Source: Candidatus Effluviviaceae Genus V sp.
GTDB lineage: Bacteria > Joyebacterota > Joyebacteria > Joyebacterales > Joyebacteraceae
Reading direction: 5' to 3'
DNA length: 64,000 nt
NCBI GenBank assembly: GCA_014728125.1
Contig: WJMD01000014.1
Location: forward strand, 2,202 to 66,201
Under the pieces are notes generated by a model that was not told the origin of the DNA, made no database searches, and worked only from the letters and a program-made list of their open reading frames with translations. The position numbers were made by a program, and so were the translations under genes. Below, one piece after another: positions 13,741 to 30,053 of this stretch (within the stretch, counting starts at the first letter, position 1; the number at the start of each line of letters is the position of its first letter).

Positions 13741-14439
13741 ATGATCCGGGGCGTCTACTTCGACGCGGGCAACACGCTCATCTTTCCAGACTACGGGATC
13801 TACCGTGACGTGGCCGGCAGGCTCGGCGCTGCGATCGGCGTCGATGATGCCGTCGCGGCCGAGGCGCACGCGCGCTCGGCGTTCGATGAGGCGGTGGCTT
13901 CGTCGTCCGGGCGTGATGTAATGTCCTTCTGGGACATCTACTACACACCGTTCTACAGGCATCTCGGTCTGGCGGAGGAGAGCATCCCGGCCGCCATCGA
14001 GCTCACGCGCGACGCCAACGACGAAGGTCTCGGCATCTGGAAGGTGCCCGTCGAGGGGTACCGCGACACGATCGGGGCGCTGCGCGAGAGGGTCGATGTC
14101 ATCGGCATCGTCTCGAACTCTGACGGTCGTCTCGACGACAGGCTCAGGGGGATCGGCATCCGCGACGACTTCGACTTCGTCATCGACTCGGCGGTCGTCG
14201 GTACGAGCAAGCCCGACGTCGCGATCTTCCGGGCGGCCCTCGACCTGGGCGGGCTGTCGCCCGAGGAGGTGGTCTACGTCGGCGACTACTACGCGGTCGA
14301 CGTGGTCGGCGCGCGGGGCGCCGGCATCCGTCCCGTGCTCTTCGATCCTGTAGGGGCCTACGGTCCGGTGGACTGCGACATCATGACGACGTTCCCCGAG
14401 ATCGTCGGGCTCGTCGACGCCTGGAGGGAGGGCGCGTGA
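13741..14439 (+). CDS. HAD-superfamily hydrolase, subfamily IA
   Basis: Motif I at the N-terminus (VYFDAGNTL). Motif II IGIVSNSDG, then K in TSKPD, and motif IV YVGDYYAVDVVGARGAG. Confidence 0.75.
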   Translation: MIRGVYFDAGNTLIFPDYGIYRDVAGRLGAAIGVDDAVAAEAHARSAFDEAVASSSGRDVMSFWDIYYTPFYRHLGLAEESIPAAIELTRDANDEGLGIWKVPVEGYRDTIGALRERVDVIGIVSNSDGRLDDRLRGIGIRDDFDFVIDSAVVGTSKPDVAIFRAALDLGGLSPEEVVYVGDYYAVDVVGARGAGIRPVLFDPVGAYGPVDCDIMTTFPEIVGLVDAWREGA

Positions 14440-15185
14440 ACGTGCCGGAAGGAACGATGCGCTTCGCTCCATCCTGCCTGGCGGCGGGGCTCATGGGCGT
14501 CGGGCTCGACGAGATCCTGGCCTTGGCCAGTACGCAGACGGGGCTCGGCCTGTCGAGGCCCGTCGTCATCATCATTCAGATCGTCGTGCTCATGTTCGCC
14601 ATCATCGTGCACGAGGTCTCGCACGGGTATGCCGCTGAGCAGCTCGGCGATCCGACGGCCCGGAGAATGGGCCGGCTCACGCTCAATCCCATCCCGCACA
14701 TCGATCCGTTCGGCAGCATCCTCGTGCCCGGCATTCTCTTCCTCACGAGCCGTGTGACGGGCATGCCGCTCATCATCGGATGGGCGAAGCCGGTGCCGGT
14801 CGACATCCGGTACTTCAAGGACCCGCTCCGCGGGTTCGCCATCACCTCGGCGGCGGGCCCCGGGTCCAACTTCCTCCAGGTCATCGTCTACGCGCTCATC
14901 TTCCGCACGGCGGTGCATCTCGGCTGGCCGACGTGGGTCCAGTTCATCGGGATGCTGGGCGCGTGGTTCAACATGATCATCGCGTTCTTCAATCTCATCC
15001 CTGTGCCTCCGCTCGACGGTTCGCGCCTTGTCGCAGCCGTGCTTCCGCCCGACACGGCGGGTCGATACCTTGCCTTCGGGCGCTACGGCATGTTCGTGAT
15101 CATCGCCCTCGTCTTCTTCGGCCTTCTCGATCCCTACTTCTCGGCTATCCGACGGCTTCTGATCCTCGTTCTCGGCCTCTCATAA
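14436..15185 (+). CDS. Site-2 protease family (peptidase M50) membrane zinc metalloprotease
   Basis: HEVSHG (HExxH) sits in a TM helix. The product is multi-pass membrane. The GTG start overlaps the HAD stop (GTGA); GGAGGGAGGG upstream. Confidence 0.75.
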   Translation: MNVPEGTMRFAPSCLAAGLMGVGLDEILALASTQTGLGLSRPVVIIIQIVVLMFAIIVHEVSHGYAAEQLGDPTARRMGRLTLNPIPHIDPFGSILVPGILFLTSRVTGMPLIIGWAKPVPVDIRYFKDPLRGFAITSAAGPGSNFLQVIVYALIFRTAVHLGWPTWVQFIGMLGAWFNMIIAFFNLIPVPPLDGSRLVAAVLPPDTAGRYLAFGRYGMFVIIALVFFGLLDPYFSAIRRLLILVLGLS

Positions 15186-17734: not shown

Positions 17735-17786
17735 AGGAAGACGAGATCGCGCCGGCTTCTCCGGAGCTGAGGCGTGTGACGACAGG

Positions 17787-17825
17787 AGGCCCCGGGACGC
17801 GATTCCCGGGGCCTCTCTGCGTTTT
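17787..17825 (+). terminator. Intrinsic terminator (AGGCCCCGGG/CCCGGGGCCT stem + CTCTGCGTTTT)
   Basis: A perfect 10-bp GC stem with an 8-nt loop is followed by a T-run. It lies downstream of the membrane-protein gene and upstream of arsR. Confidence 0.6.
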
Positions 17826-17841
17826 GAGCGGGCGCCTGCCC

Positions 17842-17878
17842 TTGCGCAAGTCTTGGCGATTTGGTAAAATGCGCAAGT
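17842..17878 (+). promoter_or_regulatory. arsR promoter (TTGCGC-17-TAAAAT) flanked by two copies of the palindrome-containing repeat TGCGCAAGT (putative ArsR operator)
   Basis: -35 TTGCGC at 17842-47 and -10 TAAAAT at 17865-70. The repeat TTGCGCAAGT is at 17842-50 and TGCGCAAGT at 17870-78, so the copies straddle the -35 and the transcription start. Confidence 0.5.
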
Positions 17879-17898
17879 GTTTGAGAAGGGAGCTTCCC

Positions 17899-18204
17899 AT
17901 GCGTTCTGAGGAGGAGGCGACGTACAGGGAGCGCGCCGAGATCATCAAGGCGATGGCCCACGCGACGCGCCTCTACATCGTGGATGTCCTCTCCGAGGGA
18001 GAGCGCTGCGTCAACGACCTGACGGAGCTCGTCGGCGCGGACATGTCGACGGTGTCGCGTCATCTTTCGGTCCTGCGCTCGGCCGGCATCGTCTCGGCCG
18101 AGAAACGCGGCTCGCACATCTACTACCATCTGCAGGTGCCGTGCGTGCTGAGGTTCTTCGAATGTGTCGAGGCCGTGCTCCGGGGAAGGAGAACCGATTC
18201 GTGA
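17899..18204 (+). CDS. arsR: ArsR/SmtB family metalloregulatory transcriptional repressor
   Basis: wHTH segment HATRLYIVDVLSEGERCVNDLTELVGADMSTVSRHLSVLRSAGIV with a metal/As-binding Cys. GAAGGGAG RBS. Confidence 0.85.
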   Translation: MRSEEEATYRERAEIIKAMAHATRLYIVDVLSEGERCVNDLTELVGADMSTVSRHLSVLRSAGIVSAEKRGSHIYYHLQVPCVLRFFECVEAVLRGRRTDS

Positions 18205-18695
18205 TGACAGGAGCCACTGCAGCGAAGCGGGGCCGATTCGGTAGATCGGTTCTGGCGCTCGTTCTCATCCTGACGTGCTTCGTCGCCGCGTGCGACAGGA
18301 GCGGCGAGGACGCAGGCGTCCGTTCGGACGGAGACGCAGGGAGGACCCGAGGGGACACGACGGCGCCGTCCTCCGGCGATGCTGTCGCGAACCGTGACCT
18401 GCCCAAGCTGATCGACCTCGGCGCCGACAAGTGCACGCCGTGCAAGATGATGGCGCCCATTCTCGAGGAGCTGCGGACGACGTACGAGGGGGATTTCGAG
18501 GTCGTCTTCATCGACGTCTGGAAGGAGCCCGAGGCCGCTCGCGAGTACGGCGTGAACGTGATCCCAACGCAGCTCTTTCTCGATGAGTCCGGCGACGAGC
18601 TCTTCCGTCACCAGGGTTTCTACTCCAGGGAGGAGATCCTGGCGAAGTGGCGGGAGCTCGGATATGAGTTCGAGCCGTCCTCACCCACAAGCTAG
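18204..18695 (+). CDS. Thioredoxin-fold lipoprotein (TlpA/ResA-like periplasmic thiol-disulfide oxidoreductase)
   Basis: Lipobox LTCFVAAC and a CxxC motif (DKCTPCKMMAP). The ATG overlaps the arsR stop (ATGA). Confidence 0.7.
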   Translation: MTGATAAKRGRFGRSVLALVLILTCFVAACDRSGEDAGVRSDGDAGRTRGDTTAPSSGDAVANRDLPKLIDLGADKCTPCKMMAPILEELRTTYEGDFEVVFIDVWKEPEAAREYGVNVIPTQLFLDESGDELFRHQGFYSREEILAKWRELGYEFEPSSPTS

Positions 18696-18731
18696 GTTCC
18701 GGACCACCTGACAGGGGAGGATGCAGGCAGC

Positions 18732-19430
18732 ATGGGTGAGCTCTTCGCGAACCTCACAAGGGCAGTTCAGGGAGCGCCGCTGGTGGCGCTCTCGGCGTCG
18801 CTCGCCTGGGGCGTGTTGAGCGTCGTCCTGAGCCCCTGTCATCTCGCCAGCATCCCGCTGATCGTCGGGTTCGTCGATGGGCAAGGGAGGATCTCCACGA
18901 GGCGCGCCTTCCTGATCTCCCTCTACTTCTCCGTGGGCATCCTCATCACCATCGCGGCCATCGGGGTCGCCACGGCCGCGGCCGGACGCATCATGGGAGA
19001 CCTCGGAAGCGTCACGACGTACGTGATAGCCGGTGTGCTCGTGCTGGTGGGTCTTCACCTCATCGGCCTTGTGCCCGCGCCGTGGTCGGGTCCGAGCGGC
19101 GTGGCCGTGAAGCGCAAGGGCGGGCTCGCGGCCTTCGTGCTCGGGCTCATCTTCGGCGTCGCGCTCGGGCCCTGCACCTTCGCCTACATGGCCCCCATGC
19201 TCGGCGTCGTGCTGGGCATCGCGGGCACGAGCCTCGCCTACAGCGTCGTTCTGCTTCTGGCGTACGGCATCGGGCACTGCGCGGTCATCGTCCTTGCGGG
19301 GACGTTCACTGAGGTCGTCCAGCGCTATCTGAACTGGACCGAGCGCTCAGGCGGCGCCATATGGCTTCGGAGGGCGTGCGGTGTGCTCGTGATCGCCGGC
19401 GGGGTCTACCTGCTGGTGACCCGCCTGTGA
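18732..19430 (+). CDS. ccdA: Cytochrome c biogenesis protein CcdA / DsbD-like transmembrane thiol-disulfide electron transporter
   Basis: Six TM helices. The two conserved Cys sit in LSPCHLASIP and LGPCTFAYMAP, as in CcdA/DsbD-beta. Confidence 0.8.
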   Translation: MGELFANLTRAVQGAPLVALSASLAWGVLSVVLSPCHLASIPLIVGFVDGQGRISTRRAFLISLYFSVGILITIAAIGVATAAAGRIMGDLGSVTTYVIAGVLVLVGLHLIGLVPAPWSGPSGVAVKRKGGLAAFVLGLIFGVALGPCTFAYMAPMLGVVLGIAGTSLAYSVVLLLAYGIGHCAVIVLAGTFTEVVQRYLNWTERSGGAIWLRRACGVLVIAGGVYLLVTRL

Positions 19431-19461
19431 CGTCCGGGCGGCTCGCTTCGGGAGAGAGACC

Positions 19462-20760
<1,299 letters not shown>

Positions 20761-20770
20761 GAGGTTGGAT

Positions 20771-21010
20771 GTGAAGGTTCAGATCCTCGGGACGGGATGT
20801 CCCAAGTGCAAGGAGCTCGCGGCGAACGCGGAGGCGGCCGCGGCCGAACTCGGCGCGGACGTCGAGATCGAGAAGGTGACCGATATCAACGAGATCATGG
20901 CGTTCGGCATCATGATGACACCGGGGCTGGCCGTCGACGGCGAGGTCAAGTCCTCCGGGGGCGTGATGACGAAGGACGAGATCGTCTCGCTGCTGAAGGA
21001 GAGCAGGTGA
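20771..21010 (+). CDS. Small thioredoxin-fold protein (redox-active disulfide protein 2 family, CPKC)
   Basis: MKVQILGTGCPKC N-terminus. AGGAGG is 6 nt upstream of GTG 20771. The ORF-track start at 20765 (TTG) is in-frame but leaves no RBS spacing. Confidence 0.75.
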   Translation: MKVQILGTGCPKCKELAANAEAAAAELGADVEIEKVTDINEIMAFGIMMTPGLAVDGEVKSSGGVMTKDEIVSLLKESR

Positions 21011-21540
21011 CGTCTCGAAGGAACATCGCCGTTCTGGCTCTGTCCGTCCTGTTCCTTACGTCGCCGGCCGGCGACGGGAGCGGCGGCGCCGACGCGTCCG
21101 CGGTGCCGTCCGTTCCGGCGGACACAGCGTCGCCCGGACCTCAGCGCGCCCCGACCGACTCGACGGCGATCGACAGTCTGAGAGCCGTGCCCGACAGGGT
21201 CGACGTCCTGTACTTCCACAGAACGGCCCGCTGCGAGAACTGTGTCAGGTTCGAGGAGTACACGGCCGGCGTTTTGGCGGACTCGCTTTCCCCGGAGCTT
21301 GAGCGCGGAACCGTCACGTGGCGGACCGTCAACCTGGACGACGAAGGCGAAGAAGGCCTCGTCGAGCGATACGACATCCTCGAGAGCTCTCTCGTGCTCT
21401 CCGTCCTCGAGGACGGAGAGGAGGTCGCGTGGTCGAAGCTCGACGGGATATGGGTGTTCGTGGAGGACGAGGCGCTGTTCAGACGGTACGTGCTCGGCGA
21501 GATGCTGAACGCCATTGATGCAGTCAGGAGGACTCAGTGA
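21007..21540 (+). CDS. Secreted CxxC-containing protein of unknown function
   Basis: The GTG start overlaps the preceding stop. Signal peptide ...[26 protein letters not shown] motif in [17 protein letters not shown]. Translationally coupled to arsC (GTGA overlap). Confidence 0.45.
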
Positions 21541-21965
21541 ACAGACCGGCCGTGCTCTTCCTGTGCACCGGCAACACGGCGAGAAGTCAGATGGCCGAGG
21601 CGTTTCTTCGGAGACACGGAGGGGACCGCTTTGAGGCGGCGAGCGCGGGCTTCGAGCCGTCAGAGATCAACCCCATGACCCGACAGGTCATGGAGGAGGT
21701 CGGATACGATCTCGCTGGACAGCGCTCGAAGAGCCTGGACGAATACCTCGGACGGAAGCACTTCGGGTACCTCGTGACCGTCTGTGGCGAGGCGGAGAAG
21801 CGTTGTCCGAAGGCGTTTCCCGGCGTCGGCCGGCGTGTTCACTGGCCGTTCGACGATCCCGCGGCGCACGAGGGCGCCGAGGAGGAGAGGCTCGAGAAGT
21901 TCCGTCAGGTACGGGACCGGATCGAAGCGAGGGTCAAGGCGTGGATCGAGGAGGTCGGGAGCTAG
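21537..21965 (+). CDS. arsC: Arsenate reductase, LMW-PTPase family (thioredoxin-coupled ArsC)
   Basis: P-loop [16 protein letters not shown] (CX5R) plus downstream Cys residues ([11 protein letters not shown]). Confidence 0.85.
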
Positions 21966-22025
21966 GTCGATCGGAGGACGGGAGCCGTCCGGCATCACCG
22001 CGTCGACAGCACGAGCTTTTCCAGG

Positions 22026-22059
22026 GGGCCGCCCTGTCAGGCGGCCCTCTCTTTTCCCC
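22026..22059 (+). terminator. Intrinsic terminator after arsC (GGGCCGCC/GGCGGCCC stem + TCTCTTTTCCCC)
   Basis: An 8-bp GC stem with a 6-nt loop and a T-rich tail, immediately upstream of the lexA promoter. Confidence 0.55.
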
Positions 22060-22104
22060 TTGACGGGTGCACATGTGTGCAGTAGTCTGGTGCACGGATG
22101 TGCA
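22060..22104 (+). promoter_or_regulatory. lexA promoter with two SOS boxes of the TGCNC-N4-GTGCA type
   Basis: TGCACATGTGTGCA at 22068-22081 is a perfect 14-bp palindrome. TGCACGGATGTGCA is at 22091-22104. They overlap a TTGACG (-35, 22060-65) ... TAGTCT (-10, 22083-88) promoter, about 80 nt upstream of lexA. Confidence 0.6.
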
Positions 22105-22181
22105 GGGGGGCTTCCAGGCTGCCCTTCTGCTGAAACGGCGGACGGGACACGCCCGCTGCGACACGCTCCGGGAGGGTGGCG

Positions 22182-22805
22182 ATGCGGCACGACCTGACAG
22201 CAACGCAGCAGAGGATCCTCGACTTCATCGTCGAGACGATCCGCGACCACGACCGGTCTCCGACGATCCGCGAGATCGGTGACGCGTTCGGGATCGCTTC
22301 GACCAACGGGGTCCGCTACCACCTCGACGCGCTCGAGGAGCGGGGATACATCCGGCGTCACAAGGGTATCTCGCGCGGGATCGAATGGCTCGAGCACCAC
22401 GCGCCCGCCGCGAGGGCCGACGTCGCCCGCATCCCGCTCGTCGGCAGCGTCGCCGCCGGCGCGCCGGTCCTCGCTATCGAGAACGTCGAGGACGAGATCG
22501 CGGTCGACGACATGTTCGTGCGGGGCGACGGCTGCTTCGCTCTTCGCGTGACCGGCGACAGCATGAGGGACGCGGGCATCCTCGACGGCGACGTCGTCGC
22601 GGTGAACCCGCAGCCGACTGCGAAGACCGGGGATGTCGTCGTCGCGCTCATCGACGACGAGGCGACGGTCAAGGTCTACACGCGTCGCAGGAAGCAGGTC
22701 GTCCTCGAGGCGCGGAACCCGGAGTACGACGACATCGTGCTCAGGGAGGGCGACGCGGAGGCGCGGATCCTCGGAACGGTCGTCGGATTGATGCGGAGAT
22801 TCTAG
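22182..22805 (+). CDS. lexA: LexA repressor (S24 peptidase)
   Basis: N-terminal wHTH (LTATQQRILDFIVETIRDHDRSPTIREIGDAFGI). Cleavage site AG in VAAGAP. Catalytic Ser in GDSMRDAGI and Lys in VVALIDDEATVKVY. Confidence 0.9.
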   Translation: MRHDLTATQQRILDFIVETIRDHDRSPTIREIGDAFGIASTNGVRYHLDALEERGYIRRHKGISRGIEWLEHHAPAARADVARIPLVGSVAAGAPVLAIENVEDEIAVDDMFVRGDGCFALRVTGDSMRDAGILDGDVVAVNPQPTAKTGDVVVALIDDEATVKVYTRRRKQVVLEARNPEYDDIVLREGDAEARILGTVVGLMRRF

Positions 22806-22886
22806 TGCGGGCCCTTCCGGATATCGCGGCGGAGAACATGTTCCGCGGCGGACACCGGAAGCGCCCCCGGAAGGAGGAGGAAGGAT

Positions 22887-23657
22887 ATGAACAACGTACG
22901 CAGAAGAGAACGACGAGGCTCGGCGACGCAGGCGTTCTCCTTTATCGCGCTCGTCATCCTCATCATGGGCGCCCTGCTCGTGCTCGACGGGCCGGCGCCC
23001 GCGAAGGAGATGGAGCGTTCGGTGGACACAGCGACCACCAATCTCTCTGCTGCGCGGGCGGTCCGGCCCGACCGGGTCGCGCTGCCGGCGCCCAGGATCA
23101 GTTCCATGCCGGTCGAGCGGGCGATCAGCGGACGGCGCTCGGTCAGGGCCTACTCGGATGCGCCGATCCCGCTCGCCGATCTCTCGCAGCTCCTCTGGGC
23201 GGCGCAGGGCGAGACCGAGGCGGGGCGGCGGGCGGCGCCGTCCGCCGGCGCGCTCTACCCCATCGAGCTCTACGTCGCGGCCGGACGCGTCACGGACCTG
23301 CCGGCGGGGCTCTATCACTACGACCCGGAGGCGCACGACCTCGCGGTCGTCGAGATCGCGGACGTGCGGCCCATGCTCTCGGACGCAGCGCTCTCGCAGG
23401 AGTGGGTCGCCGACGCGGCGGCCGTGGTCGTCATCGGCGCGGTCCCCGGGAGGACGGCGGCCAAGTACGGTGCCCGCGCGGAGCGATACGTCCACATCGA
23501 GGTCGGCGCGGTGGCGGAGAACATCTATCTGCAGTCGGAGAGCCTGGGTCTGGGGACCGTGTTCGTCGGCGCGTTCTCCGACGAGGATGTCGCCGGCGTG
23601 CTCGGCGAGCCCGAGGTCGAGCCGTTCGGACTCATGCCGGTCGGCGCGCTGCCGTAG
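22887..23657 (+). CDS. SagB-type dehydrogenase / nitroreductase-family protein with N-terminal TM anchor
   Basis: Nitroreductase-like segments RRSVRAY ... LYPIELYV ... YVHIEVGAVAENIYLQSESLGLGTV. GGAGGAGGAAGG RBS. Confidence 0.6.
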   Translation: MNNVRRRERRGSATQAFSFIALVILIMGALLVLDGPAPAKEMERSVDTATTNLSAARAVRPDRVALPAPRISSMPVERAISGRRSVRAYSDAPIPLADLSQLLWAAQGETEAGRRAAPSAGALYPIELYVAAGRVTDLPAGLYHYDPEAHDLAVVEIADVRPMLSDAALSQEWVADAAAVVVIGAVPGRTAAKYGARAERYVHIEVGAVAENIYLQSESLGLGTVFVGAFSDEDVAGVLGEPEVEPFGLMPVGALP

Positions 23658-23704
23658 GTGCGGTGGGGGACATGCGAGGGACAACAGCAAGAGGACCGGA
23701 CCAC

Positions 23705-23959
23705 ATGATCCAGGAGATCAACGAGCCCGTCACCGTGCTCACGCGGTTCAGCGGCGGCCGGCTCGACCCCCTGCGCTTCCGGTGGCGGAACCGCGTCGTC
23801 GACGTCGACCGCATCACCGGCCGCTGGGAGGTGCGCGAGGGGCAGTACAAGCACCACCATTTCTCGGTCGTCACGACCGAGGAGGATTTCTTCGAACTGG
23901 TCTACGACACCCGGACGATGGCGTGGCTCCTGACCCGGACCGATCTGGAGGGTTCCTAG
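23705..23959 (+). CDS. Small hypothetical protein (84 aa)
   Basis: In-frame ATG at 23705 within a co-directional operon. No recognisable motif. Confidence 0.3.
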   Translation: MIQEINEPVTVLTRFSGGRLDPLRFRWRNRVVDVDRITGRWEVREGQYKHHHFSVVTTEEDFFELVYDTRTMAWLLTRTDLEGS

Positions 23960-23962
23960 AGG

Positions 23963-24832
23963 ATGCCTGAACTTCCCGAGATAGCGAACAGGGCGAGCGA
24001 GATGCGAAAGCACCTGACGGGGCGGACCATCACCGGCATCGAGGTCCTGCAGCCGAAGTGCCTGAACGTCTCGAAGCGGACGTTCTCGCGACGGCTGAAG
24101 GGCTCCCGTTTCGAGGATGTGTCGCACCGCGGGAAGTGGATCGTCGCGTCCATGTCGGAGGGGTACCTTTTCATCAACCTCGGCATGGGAGGCGACCTTC
24201 TTCTTGTGCCGTCCGACGAGCTTCCCGAGAAGCGGCGGGTCACGTTCCATCTCGATGACGGTACCAGCCTCGCCGTCAACTTCTGGTGGTTCGGTCACAC
24301 GCACGTCGCGGCCCGGCTCGAAGACCACGCGCCCATCGCGAAGCTCGGCCCCGATGTGCTCGACCTCACGAAGCGGCAGTTCCGGGAGCTCGTCGGCGGC
24401 AGGCGCGGCGGGGTCAAGTCGTTCCTGCTCAATCAGGAGCGCATCGCCGGCATCGGGAACGCCTACGTGCACGACATCCTCTTTCTGGCGGGACTGCACC
24501 CGCTCCGCACGCTCGATTCACTCACCGACGAGGAGATCGACGGCCTGTGGAAAGCGATCCGGGACGGTCTGAAACCGAGTCTCAGAAAGGGCGGAGCGTT
24601 CTACGAGCGGGATCTCTTCGGCCGCCCCGGCCGCTTCTCGGTCGACGATCTCCTCGTTGCGTACCGTGAGGGGAAGGCGTGCCCCACGTGCGGCACGGCC
24701 GTCGAGAAGCTGAAGGTCGGCAGCACGACGAGCTTCATCTGCCCGACCTGCCAGCCGCGGCCCCGGGCGAAGAAGTCGCGGCGCACGAAGGCCCGGCGGG
24801 TGACGAAGAAACGGGCATCGAAGGAGAAGTGA
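23963..24832 (+). CDS. fpg: Formamidopyrimidine-DNA glycosylase / endonuclease VIII family (Fpg/Nei)
   Basis: MPELPE N-terminus (catalytic Pro2-Glu3), an H2TH region, and a C-terminal zinc finger CPTCGTAVEKLKVGSTTSFICPTC. Confidence 0.85.
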   Translation: MPELPEIANRASEMRKHLTGRTITGIEVLQPKCLNVSKRTFSRRLKGSRFEDVSHRGKWIVASMSEGYLFINLGMGGDLLLVPSDELPEKRRVTFHLDDGTSLAVNFWWFGHTHVAARLEDHAPIAKLGPDVLDLTKRQFRELVGGRRGGVKSFLLNQERIAGIGNAYVHDILFLAGLHPLRTLDSLTDEEIDGLWKAIRDGLKPSLRKGGAFYERDLFGRPGRFSVDDLLVAYREGKACPTCGTAVEKLKVGSTTSFICPTCQPRPRAKKSRRTKARRVTKKRASKEK

Positions 24833-24863
24833 CGCCCGGGAGCGATTCCCGAGAGGAACCACC

Positions 24864-26297
24864 ATGCTGGGACGCCACAGAAAGGAGGCGCGCGTCGGCT
24901 CGTCGCGCGACGAGCGCCTCGTCTTCCACATCGACATGGACGCGTTCTTCGCCTCGGTCGAGGTGATGTGCCGCCCGAAGCTCAAGGGTTTGCCGGTCAT
25001 CGTCAGCGGCAAGCCGACCACCAGGAGCGTCGTGGCGGCGGCGTCGTACGAGGCGCGCGAGTACGGGATCCACTCGGCGATGCCGACGGCGGAAGCGTTC
25101 CGGCGCTGCCCGCACGTCGTCGCCGTCGAGGGGAACCCGGGGCAGTACATCTACGTCTCGCTCGAGCTCCTCCGCATCTACAAGTCGTACTCGACCGTCG
25201 TCGAGCCGTACTCGATAGACGAGGCGTTCGTCGAGATGACCGGGACCGAGTGCACCTGGGAGAACGCGCACGAGGTCGCCCGGGAGATCAAGAGGAGGGT
25301 ACGCGAGCGCTTCGGCGGCATCACGGCCTCGATCGGGATCGGCCCGAACAAGCTCATCGCGAAGATGTGCTCAGGGATGCAGAAACCCGACGGCATGACC
25401 GTCATCTCCCCGGGCGAATTCATGAGGGTCTTCGGGGACCGACCGGTGACCGACATCTGGGGCGTCGGGACGAAGACCGCGGTCGCCCTCGGTATGATGG
25501 GCGTCACGACCATCGGCGAGCTCTCGGAGTTCCCGGTCTCCATGCTCCGGCGTCGCTTCGGCATCATGGGGGAGATCCTCCACCTGATGGCGTGCGGCCA
25601 GGACGACACGCCGGTCGTGCCCTACTACGAGGGAATGCCGGTCCGGTCGATGGGCCACGAGCACACGTTGCCGGAGGACACCTGGGACATCCGGGAGGCC
25701 GAGAAAGTGCTCCTCCGCCTGTGCGACCAGGTGGCCAGGCGCATGCGGAAGAAGGAGTACATGGGGAACGTCATCTCGATGCGTCTGAGGTTCTCGGATT
25801 TCGACTCGGTCGGTCGTCAGAGGAAGATCAGGTTCTACACCGACGAGGAGCGCGTCATCTACCGGGTCGCGCGCGATCTCATGCACCGCCACTGGCGGCC
25901 CGGTCAGGCGATCCGGCTCGTGGGGGTCAACTGCTCGGGGCTGGTGCGCGTTCCGGAGGTCATGCAGATCGACCTCTTCCGGCAGAAGGACGAGGACTCG
26001 CACCGGAAGCTCCTGAACGCTCTCGATGCGATCCGTGATAAGTTCGGGGAGGAGGCCATCACCCGCGCCCGCCTCATCTCGAGGAACGCGAAGATGTGGT
26101 ACTCGAAGCACCGTGTCTCGGAGCCGCGCTTCATGCGGATGGGCCTGGGGGAGGACCGGCCTCCGTCGATCATGGCCGGCTGGCACGACGCGGCGCCCAA
26201 CCTCGACTCCATTCCGCTCCCGCCGGGCCTCTCGTCGAGCCCGTCCGACATGCTCAGGTTCCAGGACATCGACGACGGGGGGACGCCGCGCGGCTGA
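24864..26297 (+). CDS. dinB: DNA polymerase IV (Y-family, DinB)
   Basis: HIDMDAFFASVE catalytic Asp motif and YSIDEAFVE, as in canonical DinB/UmuC. Confidence 0.9.
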   Translation: MLGRHRKEARVGSSRDERLVFHIDMDAFFASVEVMCRPKLKGLPVIVSGKPTTRSVVAAASYEAREYGIHSAMPTAEAFRRCPHVVAVEGNPGQYIYVSLELLRIYKSYSTVVEPYSIDEAFVEMTGTECTWENAHEVAREIKRRVRERFGGITASIGIGPNKLIAKMCSGMQKPDGMTVISPGEFMRVFGDRPVTDIWGVGTKTAVALGMMGVTTIGELSEFPVSMLRRRFGIMGEILHLMACGQDDTPVVPYYEGMPVRSMGHEHTLPEDTWDIREAEKVLLRLCDQVARRMRKKEYMGNVISMRLRFSDFDSVGRQRKIRFYTDEERVIYRVARDLMHRHWRPGQAIRLVGVNCSGLVRVPEVMQIDLFRQKDEDSHRKLLNALDAIRDKFGEEAITRARLISRNAKMWYSKHRVSEPRFMRMGLGEDRPPSIMAGWHDAAPNLDSIPLPPGLSSSPSDMLRFQDIDDGGTPRG

Positions 26298-26328
26298 CGG
26301 GACGTTGAGAGGACACGAGGAAGCGACC

Positions 26329-27237
26329 ATGAGAACGAACGACATGCAGGGGGACCTCTTCGGCGGTCCCGAGAAGGTGAACGGTCTGCCGGACGGGAAC
26401 GGCGCGTGGGACTCGAGCGCGAGCCCGCCCGGCGTGCGTTGGTTCGGCCGCGAGGGACGGATCCGTATCGGCACGTCGGGCTACAGCTTCGCCGACTGGG
26501 TCGGCACATTCTACCCTGCGGGCACGCGGCGCAACGGCATGCTCGAGGAATACGTCCGGCACTTCGATACCGTCGAGATCAACACGAGCTACTACCGCGT
26601 CCCGGACGCCTCGATGTTCGAACGCATGGAGCGGCGGACGCCGCCGGGGTTCGAGTTCGTGGTCAAGCTCTACAAGGGGATGACGCACGAGATCGAGGAC
26701 GAGCCCGAGCACTTCCGTTCGTTTCTCGAAGCGGTGGCGCCCTTCCGTGAAGCGGGCAAGTTCGGCGGCTTTCTGGCGCAGTTTCCATGGCGGTTCAAAA
26801 AGAACGACGACGCCCTCGCGCACCTCGAGCGGCTCCGCAACGGCTTCCCCTCGGACGAGCTCTTCGTCGAGTTCCGGCACGACTCGTGGATGGAGGATGC
26901 GACGTTCGCGTTTCTCCGGGAGCACGACATCGGCTACTGCTCGGTCGACGAGCCGTCGCTCAAGGGTCTCGTCCCGCCGCTGGCCGAGGCGACGACCGGC
27001 ACCGCCTACGTCCGGCTCCACGGTCGGAACGCGAAGAACTGGTGGGGCAGGGGCGGGGGCGACCGCTACGACTACGATTACTCGACCGAGGAGCTCTCAG
27101 AGTGGTCGCGGAAGCTCCTCGACCTCGAGACGAAGGCGAAGAAGGTCTACGCGTTCTTCAACAACTGCCACGCCGGACACGCCGCGACGAACGCTGAACT
27201 GATGATGAACCTGCTCGAGGGGGAACTCGGATCCTGA
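26329..27237 (+). CDS. DUF72 (UPF0759, YecE-like) family protein
   Basis: [19 protein letters not shown]-terminus and FRHDSW ... AYVRLHGRN motifs, typical of DUF72. Confidence 0.7.
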
Positions 27238-27256
27238 ACAGGGAAGGCTGGAGAGC

Positions 27257-27676
27257 ATGACGTCGCACCGCAAGGAACTCTGGTTCAACACGCCCGGACG
27301 ACGGGCGTTCATCAACATCACCCCGCAGGTCGAAGAGGCGCTGGAGGAGTCCGGCGTCACCGAGGGACTCGTCCTCGTGAACGCCATGCACATCACGGCG
27401 TCGGTCTTCGTGAACGACGACGAGAAAGGACTCCACGAGGACTACGAGCGCTGGCTCGAGCGGCTCGCTCCGCACGAGCCGGTCAGCTCCTATCAGCACA
27501 ACCTGACCGGTGAGGACAACGCCGACGCGCATCTCAAGCGGCAGATCATGGGACGCGGCGTGGTGGTCGCCGTGACGGCGGGGAAGCTCGACTTCGGTCC
27601 GTGGGAGCAGATCTTCTACGGCGAGTTCGACGGCGGGCGTCGCAAGCGGGTGCTCGTCAAGATCATCGGGGAGTGA
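27257..27676 (+). CDS. yjbQ: YjbQ/UPF0047 family protein (secondary thiamine-phosphate synthase-like)
   Basis: Family-typical size of about 139 aa and motifs ([36 protein letters not shown]). Confidence 0.75.
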
Positions 27677-27680
27677 GCGT

Positions 27681-30053
27681 GTGGAGATAGCCCGGTTCCT
27701 CGAGTCCCTCCGGCATCACAGGTACTACCGCGGGCAGATCGCTCACATCGAGGCCGTGCCGGCCCGCGAGGCGCGGTACGGTGAGCTTGGACGGCCGCTG
27801 CCCGGGCCGCTCGCCTCCGCCCTGTCGGCCGCCGGCATCGAGCGGCTCTACTCGCACCAGGTCGAGTCGATCGACGCGGTGCGGCGGGGGGAGAACGTCG
27901 TCGTCGTGACGGGCACAGCGTCCGGGAAGACGCTCTGCTACAACGTCCCGGTCATCGAGACGCTTCTCGAGGAGCCCTCCTCGAAGGCGCTCTACCTCTT
28001 TCCCACGAAGGCCCTCGCGCAGGACCAGCAGCGGGGGCTTCTCCGGCTGCGCGAACTCGACGCACGCATCGGAGGAGCAGTGCGGTCGGGGACCTACGAC
28101 GGCGACACCACGCGGCACACGCGACGGAAGCTCCGCGACGAGGGGAACATCATCCTCTCGAACCCCGACATGCTGCACGCGGCCATCCTCCCGTACCACG
28201 CCAAGTGGAACCGGTTCTTCAAGGACCTGAAGTACGTCGTGGTCGACGAGATCCACACGTACCGCGGCATCTTCGGCTCGAACGTCGCCAACGTCCTCAG
28301 GAGGCTCCGGCGCGTCTGTGAACACTACGGCTCGCAGCCTCAGTTCATCGCCTCGAGCGCCACGATCGCCAACCCCGGCGAGCTGGCCGAGGGTCTGACG
28401 GGCCTTCCGTTCAGGACGGTCGACACGGACGGGAGTCCCAGGGGGCGGAAGTACTTCGTGCTCTGGAATCCGCCCTTCCTCGATGAGGCCGAGATGGAGC
28501 GCAGAAGCTCGAACGTCGAGGGGCACTGGCTCATGGCCGAGCTCATCGCGGCCGGGTTCCAGACGATCGCCTTCGGCCGGGCGCGCGTGGTCGCCGAGCT
28601 CATCTACCGGTACGCCAAAGACACCCTGGCCCGGACCAAGCCCGAGTATGCCCGGAAGATCCGCCCGTACCGGGGAGGCTATCTCCCCGAGGAGCGGCGC
28701 GAGATCGAGCGGCAGCTCTTCAGTGGAGAGCTGATGGGCGTGGCGAGCACCAACGCGCTCGAGCTCGGCATCGATGTCGGGAGCTTGGACGCCGCCATCA
28801 TCGTCGGCTTCCCGGGCACGATCGCGAGTTCGTGGCAGCAGGCGGGCAGGGCCGGGCGAACCTCCGACGAGTCGCTGGCCGTCCTCGTCGGCTACAACGA
28901 CCCGATCGACCAGTACCTCATGCGCCACGGCGAGTACTTCTTCAGCCAGTCGCCGGAGAGCGCCGTCATCGACCCGGAGAACCGCTACATCCTGGCCAAG
29001 CACCTGCGGTGCGCAGCCTTCGAGCTGCCGGTGACCGGTCGTGACGCCGAGCTCTTCGGCGACCTGACGGAGCCGATCCTCGCGCTCCTGGAGGAGTTCC
29101 ATGAGGTCCGCGAGCTCGACGGACGCCACTACTGGGCATCGACCGAGTATCCGGCGCGCCAGGTGAGCCTCCGGACCATCTCGGACGACACGTACACCAT
29201 CGTCGACGTCGGCGACGAGAACCGGACGGTCGGCGTCGTCGACGGCGTGTCGGCGCTCGAACTCGTCTACCCCGAGGCCATCTACCTGCATGAGGGGGAG
29301 ACCTACTTCGTGCGCGATCTCGACCTGGAGCAGAAGATTGCGTACGTCGAGAAGAAGGAGGTCGACTACTACACGCAGCCGATCCTCGAGTCATCCATCC
29401 GCGTCGAAGGGGAACGGGAGCACACCGCACGATCGGACGGAAGGCTGGTCTTCGGGGACGCGACCGTCACGTGGATGACGGCCGCCTTCAAGAAGATCCA
29501 GTTCTACAAGATGGACTCGATCGGCTGGTCGAACCTCGACCTGCCTCCGTTCCATCTGGAGACCCACGCGCTCTGGTTCATTCCCTCGAAGGAGATGATG
29601 GCGTCGGTGCGCGAGCGGGGCAGGAACCCGGTCGAGGGGCTTGTCGGCATACGGAACATGGCGATCAGCGTGCTGCCGCTCTTCGCCATGTGCGACCGAC
29701 GGGACATCGGGGGGATCGTCGAAAGCTCCAACACCGGGGCTCCGACGATGTTCCTCTACGACCGCTACGAGGGCGGTCTCGGGTTCGTCGAGCAGGGCTA
29801 CCGCCGCTTCGACGAACTCCTTACGGGGTGTCTCGATCTCGTCGAGGAGTGTCCGTGCGAGGACGGCTGTCCGTCGTGCGTCGGGCTCCCGGTGCTCAGA
29901 CCCCCGGTGCAGCAGGACCCCGACTCGCAGGGAGGCTGGCCGATCCCCGATAAGGAGTCGGCGCGCCTTCTGCTTCGGTCCATCCTTGGGGTTACTGCTC
30001 GGGAAGCCCCTCGGCCAGGACCTGGAAGTGATGCCCGGCGATCGCCAGCGTGA
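27681..30053 (+). CDS. mrfA: DEAD/DEAH-box helicase with C-terminal DUF1998 Cys4 zinc module (MrfA/YprA-like DNA repair helicase)
   Basis: Walker A GTASGKT, DExH VVVDEIH, the helicase C domain, and C-terminal ECPCEDGCPSC. Confidence 0.8.
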   Translation: MEIARFLESLRHHRYYRGQIAHIEAVPAREARYGELGRPLPGPLASALSAAGIERLYSHQVESIDAVRRGENVVVVTGTASGKTLCYNVPVIETLLEEPSSKALYLFPTKALAQDQQRGLLRLRELDARIGGAVRSGTYDGDTTRHTRRKLRDEGNIILSNPDMLHAAILPYHAKWNRFFKDLKYVVVDEIHTYRGIFGSNVANVLRRLRRVCEHYGSQPQFIASSATIANPGELAEGLTGLPFRTVDTDGSPRGRKYFVLWNPPFLDEAEMERRSSNVEGHWLMAELIAAGFQTIAFGRARVVAELIYRYAKDTLARTKPEYARKIRPYRGGYLPEERREIERQLFSGELMGVASTNALELGIDVGSLDAAIIVGFPGTIASSWQQAGRAGRTSDESLAVLVGYNDPIDQYLMRHGEYFFSQSPESAVIDPENRYILAKHLRCAAFELPVTGRDAELFGDLTEPILALLEEFHEVRELDGRHYWASTEYPARQVSLRTISDDTYTIVDVGDENRTVGVVDGVSALELVYPEAIYLHEGETYFVRDLDLEQKIAYVEKKEVDYYTQPILESSIRVEGEREHTARSDGRLVFGDATVTWMTAAFKKIQFYKMDSIGWSNLDLPPFHLETHALWFIPSKEMMASVRERGRNPVEGLVGIRNMAISVLPLFAMCDRRDIGGIVESSNTGAPTMFLYDRYEGGLGFVEQGYRRFDELLTGCLDLVEECPCEDGCPSCVGLPVLRPPVQQDPDSQGGWPIPDKESARLLLRSILGVTAREAPRPGPGSDARRSPA

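Follow-up and report, generated by a model that had tools for sequence, protein, structure and literature searches.

Features of the lexA locus

The stretch analysed here, a 64-kb window (64,000 nt) of contig WJMD01000014.1, contains a lexA gene whose promoter region carries two copies of a short inverted repeat, TGCAC-N4-GTGCA, and which is followed by seven genes on the same strand (Table 1). An earlier note on this DNA had read the two repeats as LexA operators of the TGCNC-N4-GTGCA class; the positions and sequences that it gave for them were exact on direct reading. Both boxes fit the consensus dyad of that class, with 5-bp inverted arms and a 4-bp spacer.

The lexA product has an N-terminal winged-helix DNA-binding domain (PF01726, 71 bits) and a C-terminal S24 peptidase domain (PF00717, 112 bits), and scored 202.8 bits on the NCBIfam equivalog TIGR00498 (cut-off 110.95). 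The recognition helix (helix 3) reads S40-T-N-G-V-R45 in the translation, and the residues for self-cleavage were found there as well: the Ala92-Gly93 bond in VAAGAP and a Ser/Lys dyad made up of Ser127 in GDSM and Lys164 in ATVKVY. Judged by its translation, the gene is a true lexA with the full residue set of a cleavable SOS repressor. The ATG at 22182 was preferred as start codon over the GTG at 22176 because of the position of the Shine-Dalgarno sequence.

Table 1. Positions of the features discussed in the text. Coordinates refer to the window unless a locus in a relative is named.
Feature	Position	Strand	Remarks
Thiol/arsenic-type operon	17776-21965	+	co-directional, upstream of the lexA promoter
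ArsR-family gene	17776-18204		about 4 kb upstream of the boxes
Intrinsic-terminator-like hairpin	22023-22050	+	11-bp G+C stem, then UCUCUUUUCCCC; fold dG -23.8 kcal/mol, z -3.3
-35 hexamer TTGACG (predicted)	22060-22065	+	read directly; in relatives and more distant phyla TTGAC lies 3 bp ahead of the box
Putative LexA operator 1 (box 1)	22068-22081	+	TGCACATGTGTGCA, TGCAC-ATGT-GTGCA; read directly, pattern scan
-10 hexamer TAGTCT, form TAnnnT (predicted)	22083-22088	+	1 bp past box 1
Putative LexA operator 2 (box 2)	22091-22104	+	TGCACGGATGTGCA, TGCAC-GGAT-GTGCA; read directly, pattern scan
Shine-Dalgarno sequence GGAGG	22171-22175	+	read directly; 6 nt ahead of the ATG
lexA, 207 aa	22182-22805	+	Pfam LexA_DNA_bind and Peptidase_S24; TIGR00498
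SagB-type nitroreductase-family gene	22887-23657	+	second in cluster
DUF6504-like small open reading frame, 84 aa	23705-23959	+	
Fpg/Nei-family DNA glycosylase	23963-24832	+	
dinB (DNA polymerase IV, Y family)	24864-26297	+	Pfam IMS, IMS_C; NF002677 313 bits, cut-off 256
DUF72-family gene	26329-27237	+	syntenic in L004, L184, L201/L202
UPF0047/YjbQ-family gene	27257-27676	+	
DEAH/DECH-box helicase, MrfA-type zinc-binding domain	27681-30053	+	Pfam DEAD, WHD_HRQ1, MZB; last in cluster
Structured leader element (relatives)	L001:2808-2916		
Structured leader element (relatives)	L002:1441-1548		
Structured leader element (relatives)	L003:2871-2976		
Structured leader element (relatives)	L167:1547-1652	-	
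Structured leader element (relatives)	L200:90-206	-	

Box 1 fills the 17-bp spacer between the -35 and -10 hexamers, and box 2 starts 2 bp past the -10 hexamer. The gap between the boxes is 9 bp (23 bp from centre to centre) and the ATG of lexA lies 77 nt past box 2, in agreement with the earlier reading of two boxes overlapping a TTGACG…TAGTCT promoter some 80 nt from lexA. Transcription would start at about 22094-22097, inside box 2. Box 1 had also been described as a perfect 14-bp palindrome, which holds for six of its seven pairs; the central T7/G8 pair is asymmetric (reverse complement TGCACACATGTGCA). The symmetry of box 2 is confined to the 5+5 arms.

The pattern TGCNC-N4-GTGCA gave four strand hits in the window, namely the two boxes on both strands, and none elsewhere. 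In 100 dinucleotide-preserving shuffles of the window the mean was 0.33 strand hits and the largest number was 3, so that none of the 100 reached the observed 4. With one mismatch allowed, a single extra site appeared in the window at 14904, within a predicted open reading frame (ORF) at 14436-15185; with two mismatches there were 18 sites where 18.5 were expected, which is chance level. None of these scans of the window placed a box ahead of an internal gene of the lexA cluster. Short palindromes as such are common (139 perfect 10-bp palindromes in the window), which speaks for chance repeats without function; the shuffles speak against them.

Conservation of the promoter in relatives

A LexA-similarity scan of one genome per species yielded 80 loci (L001-L080) that were chosen by the protein alone; these and L201-L207 are the only loci independent of the box. 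No Fibrobacter locus was among the 80. Among the 80, the nearest LexA proteins were 66-70% identical to that of the window and came from metagenome-assembled genomes (MAGs) labelled Candidatus Eisenbacteria or unclassified, followed by Latescibacterota (~54%) and then by Zixibacteria and Ignavibacteria. An exact TGCNC-N4-GTGCA was present in four of the 80 (L001, L002, L003 and L011), each time directly upstream of lexA. Closer relatives were obtained from a metagenome scan (L115/L181, LexA 90% identical) and from exact-protein look-ups (L201-L204, DUF6504-like small ORF 95% identical), and all of these have kept both boxes.

The box arms were invariant in ten loci (L001, L002, L003, L115, L167, L200 and L201-L204). 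Over the 47-bp core from the -35 hexamer to box 2, identity to the window was 46/47 in L202 and L115 and 40-41/47 in L001, L167 and L200, or 85-98% over these two-box relatives; the 40-bp flanks, aligned without gaps, were identical at 12-26 of 40 positions. Substitutions in the core sit in the N3, in the N4 and at interior positions of the -10 hexamer, and the arms are spared. By this comparison the boxes are a classic phylogenetic footprint, kept in the promoters of lexA orthologues. The architecture TTGAC-N3-box-N-TAnnnT is shared across phyla, with boxes of different types. The Eisenbacteria-like loci have TGCAC..GTGCA (two boxes with the 9-bp gap in L001, one in L002 and L003), the Latescibacterota have TGAAC..GTGCA, TGAAC..GTTCA or TGCAC..GTGCA, and the Ignavibacteria have TGAAC..GTTCA; across Latescibacterota, Zixibacteria and Ignavibacteria the box passes by degrees into TGAAC-N4-GTTCA.

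Box 2 with its 9-bp gap was found in L001, L115/L181, L167, L200 and L201-L204, in L200 in a degraded form (TGCACGGATGGGCA). In L002 and L003, whose LexA proteins are 66-69% identical to that of the window, box 1 is kept and unrelated sequence stands at the position of box 2, and most of the metagenomic promoters listed below also have a single box. These cases bear on the reading in which box 1 alone works as an operator and box 2 is a lineage-specific extra with little or no role and no 'strong' tandem repression. We consider that reading unlikely. Leaving L200 aside, the arms of box 2 and the 9-bp gap are kept in the window and in the loci named above while the N4 and the leader vary, which is the pattern expected under selection on the arms. 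Box 2 also lies over the predicted transcription start, the classical position for a repressor, and tandem sites in lexA promoters bind LexA cooperatively in other phyla (PMC4951493). The absence of box 2 from L002 and L003 indicates that the second site is an enhancement and not a requirement.

Folded as a single strand, 22060-22110 gave a dG of -21.6 kcal/mol (z -3.45), so a hairpin or cruciform of box 1 with box 2, serving as an attenuator, a terminator or a recombination site in place of protein sites, was also weighed. We find it scarcely credible. The fold is an automatic by-product, since a palindrome that is present twice can always pair with its other copy, and the predicted transcription start inside box 2 would leave box 1 outside the RNA. 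There is no T-run past box 2, where the next bases are GGGGGG; the N4 substitutions are not compensatory between the boxes; and neither the single-box relatives nor most of the other promoters can form such a hairpin.

Box type and the LexA recognition helix

All retrieved LexA proteins were sorted by their recognition helix, and they divided cleanly. Helix-3 STNGVR, as in the window, paired with T-G-[C/A]-A-C…G-T-[G/T]-C-A boxes, STFGVK (Ignavibacteria) with TGAAC/TGCAC forms, and S[S/T]S[T/S]VH (Firmicutes and Actinobacteria) with CGAAC-N4-GTT[C/T]G, often in tandem. The motif co-varied with the helix of the cognate LexA. There is a smooth sequence path from GAAC-N4-GTTC to the TGCAC form along which the recognition helix changes as well, and this bears on models of LexA motif evolution.

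The same promoter in metagenomes

Metagenomes were scanned with the pattern TTGAC-N3-TGCAC-N4-GTGCA, and all counts that follow are among the matches listed. A TAnnnT hexamer stood exactly 1 nt past the box in 48 of the 116 unique sites with enough sequence; at each of 17 other offsets tested it stood in 0-11. The listed sites, like the relatives, favour NNAT as the spacer and a G behind the box. Together with the shuffles, and with arms that stay the same against diverging flanks in relatives whose LexA is 64-90% identical, this preferred offset leaves chance palindromes without function effectively refuted.

Forty-nine unique sites with a -10 hexamer one nt past the box were taken as a promoter-like set. 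The first gene downstream was lexA in 13 of them, a DUF6504-like small ORF (usually followed by dinB) in 7, a Hel308-like helicase in 7, dinB in 3, a DUF134 gene in 3, an AlkZ-like glycosylase in 1 and an HD-domain gene in 1; another gene or none followed in 5, and 9 had too little downstream sequence. Among the sites without an aligned -10 hexamer, 56 of 68 preceded none of these genes. An independent test used loci fetched by identity to homologues of the small ORF and not by the box. Candidatus Eisenbacteria RBG_16_71_46 (GCA_001780165.1) and two other contigs had one box each in ~12 kb, in each case 28 nt upstream of a four-gene operon of DUF6504, Y-family (IMS), unknown and DnaE2-like genes. 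The motif therefore stands ahead of other DNA-damage genes both in the metagenomes and in RBG_16_71_46.

The palindrome TGCAC-N4-GTGCA is a simple one, the same boxed promoter was found ahead of DUF134 genes (L096, L129, L179) and of one ArsR-like gene (L170), and an ArsR-family gene is present upstream in the window. These observations would fit operators of another factor, such as the upstream ArsR-family regulator or a phage-type repressor, a reading that we regard as highly improbable for the window. Four kinds of evidence run counter to it: the site tracks lexA across quite different neighbourhoods, a terminator hairpin parts the boxes from the upstream operon, the type of box follows the recognition helix of LexA, and the remaining boxed genes are overwhelmingly of SOS type (dinB, the dnaE2 cassette, repair helicases and glycosylases). 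The palindrome may also serve other regulators, or the regulon may differ between lineages.

Three further observations were made among the listed matches. On low-GC metagenome contigs (L096, L114, L129 and L179) a near-identical promoter, TTGACTTTTGCACTTATGTGCATTATATT, stands ahead of DUF134 (sigma-70 region-4-like) genes; either the DUF134 regulator is under LexA there, or another factor acts on the same palindrome. Hel308/Ski2-like helicases of 800-913 aa lie behind LexA-boxed promoters in L090, L095, L111, L113, L130, L137, L164 and L190, often after a short upstream ORF. Their family differs from that of the MrfA-like helicase in the window, so that helicases in general appear to be a recurrent component of the boxed regulon. 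Non-promoter tandem arrays with TGCAC…GTGCA every 20-30 nt were seen in L097 (944-1020, e.g. TGCACATGTGTGCAAAAGGGACCTACACACGTGTGCAAAAGAGACC), L119, L131, L194 and L198.

Probable LexA operators and proposed autoregulation

The two TGCAC-N4-GTGCA repeats are very probably operators for the LexA encoded 77 nt downstream. The earlier assignment to LexA operators of the TGCNC-N4-GTGCA class is backed computationally by the identity of lexA, the footprint, the co-variation with the helix and the association with SOS genes, and its proposal that lexA regulates itself through boxes overlapping its promoter draws computational support from the identity of lexA, the position of the promoter and its conservation.

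Several points weigh against this assignment. The organism is uncultured, and the support is computational and comes from sequence comparison. Box 2 is absent from L002 and L003 and so is not essential for the lineage. The helix association is partly circular for the metagenome loci, which were picked by box and -35 hexamer; L001-L080 are box-independent. A minority of the boxed promoters precede genes with no SOS link (DUF134, 3; ArsR-like, 1). Among the large ORFs tested in the window there was no recA, uvrA/B, imuB/dnaE2 or other classical SOS gene. Lastly, TAGTCT matches TATAAT at three of six positions, and a generic scan of 21800-22400 for sigma-70 promoters by the E. coli consensus, and for terminators, made no calls. 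The promoter was missed because its -10 hexamer is too weak for the E. coli rule; the position of both hexamers is kept in relatives despite the weak fit to consensus. The boxes overlap this predicted lexA promoter.

Under LexA control, one dimer would bind box 1 in the spacer between the -35 and -10 hexamers and a second would bind box 2, covering the predicted transcription start. Both together would occlude RNA polymerase and repress lexA, and with it probably the seven genes behind it. After DNA damage, RecA filaments would stimulate self-cleavage of LexA at Ala92-Gly93 through Ser127 and Lys164 and so free the promoter, which newly made LexA would close again, giving negative autoregulation. 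Tandem LexA sites 1-10 bp apart are common in lexA promoters and are bound cooperatively (PMC4951493), and the 23-bp spacing of the boxes resembles that of such operators. LexA binding at the boxes, cooperativity between dimers 23 bp apart from centre to centre, and inducibility by damage are inferred from the sequence.

The gene cluster behind lexA

The claim that the boxes regulate lexA is supported, and they probably govern far more than this one gene, since lexA heads a conserved eight-gene repair cluster that the earlier note had missed. lexA and the seven same-strand genes behind it span 22182-30053, with gaps of 81, 47, 3, 31, 31, 19 and 4 nt. The start given for the DUF72-family gene is our choice. 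The MrfA-like helicase scored 761 bits on TIGR03817, under the curated cut-off of 874.1, and is syntenic in L110, L118, L184 and L201/L202. Cluster order is kept in L001-L004, L181 and L201-L204. The nitroreductase gene stands behind lexA in L002, L115, L181 and L201-L204 and is absent in L001, L003 and L004. L184 has a split cluster with a separate box for dinB, and L110 and L118 have the order lexA-dinB-helicase. Two extra genes, missing from the window, lie between the UPF0047/YjbQ gene and the helicase in L201 (14012-15593) and L202 (14437-16019); they encode a protein of unknown function of 284-286 aa and a DUF5131 protein, and L202 also has a DUF3795 gene. By these comparisons the content of the cluster is fluid even at ~90% LexA identity.

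Terminator-like hits within 22182-30053 were at chance level, and there was no second box. The genes are co-directional with small gaps and conserved synteny, and a conserved hairpin lies between lexA and the next gene. From this arrangement the cluster from lexA to the helicase is probably one SOS operon, with co-transcription as an inference. Genes that elsewhere carry a LexA box of their own are gathered behind lexA here, which argues for control of a compact SOS operon by the two boxes.

The hairpin between lexA and the nitroreductase gene is an inverted repeat, CTTCCGG…CCGGAAG, at 22813-22862 (+) with a G+C-rich variable centre. L115, L201 and L202 share its outer arms but not its centre; it may serve as a hairpin for mRNA processing or stability, or as a partial terminator within the putative operon. 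A palindrome in the centre, GAACATGTTC (22834-22843), was considered as a Gram-positive-type half-operator and rejected, as it is unconserved in the relatives and 10-bp palindromes are common in the window.

The co-directional operon upstream of the lexA promoter encodes an ArsR-family regulator, a thioredoxin, a DsbD-like protein, an ArsP-type permease, a Thioredoxin_3 protein, an unknown ORF and a low-molecular-weight phosphatase (ArsC-like). Since it ends in the hairpin at 22023-22050 and a U-rich tract, the lexA promoter would be a separate unit. A simple terminator scan does not call this hairpin; a G+C hairpin and T-run occur at the matching place in relatives, with different sequences. 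The upstream operon is partly syntenic with lexA in L003, L200 and L201-L204, and on this synteny the thiol/metalloid-stress operon and the SOS cluster are conserved neighbours in the lineage.

The DUF6504-like protein and the lexA leader

With 22.4 bits on PF20114 (DUF6504), whose gathering score is 24.2, the 84-aa ORF of the cluster had no family above threshold; 12 of 13 of its homologues match PF20114. At E <= 1e-3 there are 434 representative clusters for it, all of them stand-alone proteins of ~83 aa annotated as hypothetical. In several candidate phyla a DUF6504-like ORF lies directly behind lexA or a LexA box, usually ahead of dinB or an ImuB-like/dnaE2 cassette. The AlphaFold model (pLDDT 94.3) is all-beta, with six strands. 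Foldseek with this model against the PDB gave no match at E < 0.1, nothing significant came from a profile search of the PDB sequences with the ORF, and DUF6504 was not found mentioned in a full-text literature search. From its genomic position the protein could be an accessory or regulatory subunit, so far overlooked, that serves translesion polymerases in the way of UmuD, YolD or ImuA. The proposal that the boxes act as master switch for a compact SOS module, with the DUF6504-like protein as a core part, is tentative, and we hold it to be rather doubtful.

Some Eisenbacteria-like relatives have a structured element of ~105 nt between the LexA-boxed promoter and lexA (Table 1). In the consensus structure 31 pairs are predicted, of which 5 show compensatory changes, and the loop GGAAAYGGUCAGCUCGC is strongly conserved; with four copies as input, a covariance model recovered the fifth, in L200, at 62 bits. 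Rfam searches at gathering thresholds (window and L001-L003) gave no hits, and the L001 leader at relaxed E-values gave chance microRNA matches only, leaving the element without an Rfam family. The element may act on lexA as a cis-regulatory leader RNA. In the window, and in L115, L181 and L201-L204 as its closest relatives, the leader is short (77 nt) and lacks the structured element.

Significance and phylogenetic placement

Tandem LexA operators at a lexA promoter are textbook biology and the motif class is a known one; what is new is the uncultured lineage. To our knowledge, the motif has been shown experimentally only in Fibrobacter, and the present analysis would extend it to the Eisenbacteria, an uncultured candidate phylum, and to neighbours of that phylum. 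A literature search found no paper linking LexA to Eisenbacteria, Latescibacteria or Zixibacteria. The operator model TTGAC-N3-TGCAC-NNAT-GTGCA-G-TAnnnT is usable for reconstructing SOS regulons in such MAGs. More novel leads are the DUF6504-like protein linked to LexA-controlled Y-family polymerases and the structured lexA leader of the sister lineages.

The motif had been put forward as a help in placing the organism phylogenetically. It proved a weak marker for this, occurring on contigs of 36-74% GC and grading into TGAAC-N4-GTTCA. The LexA protein and the gene synteny, and not the motif, point to Candidatus Eisenbacteria. In the NCBI taxonomy Eiseniibacteriota stand among the unplaced candidate phyla, and the FCB group includes Latescibacterota. 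The motif agrees with an FCB-like neighbourhood and is not diagnostic alone.

Comparison with known systems

The LexA box of Fibrobacter succinogenes is reportedly TGCNC-N4-GTGCA (Mazon et al. in 2004, Microbiology 150:3783-3795, a paper cited in PMC3091678); a full-text literature search for the string gave nothing usable. Both boxes of the window fit this reported consensus and share with it the 5-N4-5 dyad and the role as operators in a lexA promoter. The differences are that the organism here is Eisenbacteria-like, that the arms are fully TGCAC/GTGCA, and that NNAT is preferred as spacer, with a G following the box. The LexA box of Acidobacterium capsulatum, by contrast, is said to be the direct repeat GTTC-N7-GTTC of the alphaproteobacterial type (Mazon et al. 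in 2006). The 'Acidobacteria' half of the label that the earlier note gave to the motif is not supported, since that repeat, the alphaproteobacterial LexA site (PMC8565304, PMC4951493), is absent and no GTTC occurs anywhere in 22000-22181.

The LexA/DinR box of Gram-positive bacteria (Firmicutes and Actinobacteria) is CGAAC-N4-GTTCG (PMC4951493). It has the same geometry and inner core, xxxAC-N4-GTxxx, and is also often found in tandem in lexA promoters (PMC4951493). It differs at arm position 3 (C/G here, A/T there) and at the outer position (T/A here, C/G there), and its LexA has the helix S[S/T]S[T/S]VH in place of STNGVR. The motif of the window is nevertheless a member of the GAAC-N4-GTTC-derived family (PMC4951493).

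In E. coli too, two close operators lie over the promoter and start of lexA and give negative autoregulation. The E. coli motif is CTGT-N8-ACAG, of 16 bp or more; it is absent from 22000-22181, as had been stated. E. coli lexA is also not known to have a long repair cluster behind it like that of the window. Its promoter is likewise one with tandem SOS boxes (Brent 1982, as cited in PMC4951493).

The Verrucomicrobia have tandem LexA sites TGTTC-N4-GAACA, and among them Opitutus terrae has a lexA-imuA-imuB-dnaE2 operon (PMC4951493). The 5-N4-5 dyad, the tandem sites in the lexA promoter and a lexA gene heading a translesion/repair operon are common to both; the verrucomicrobial arms are mirror-image, their sites lie 1-2 bp apart (9 bp here), and the content of the operon is different. 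A mutagenesis cassette of the imuA-imuB-dnaE2 type is under LexA control in many phyla (PMC4951493, PMC8565304). The cassette is absent from the window; the box of RBG_16_71_46 precedes an operon that, like it, contains Y-family (IMS) and DnaE2-like genes, but its first gene is DUF6504-like and it has no recognisable imuA.

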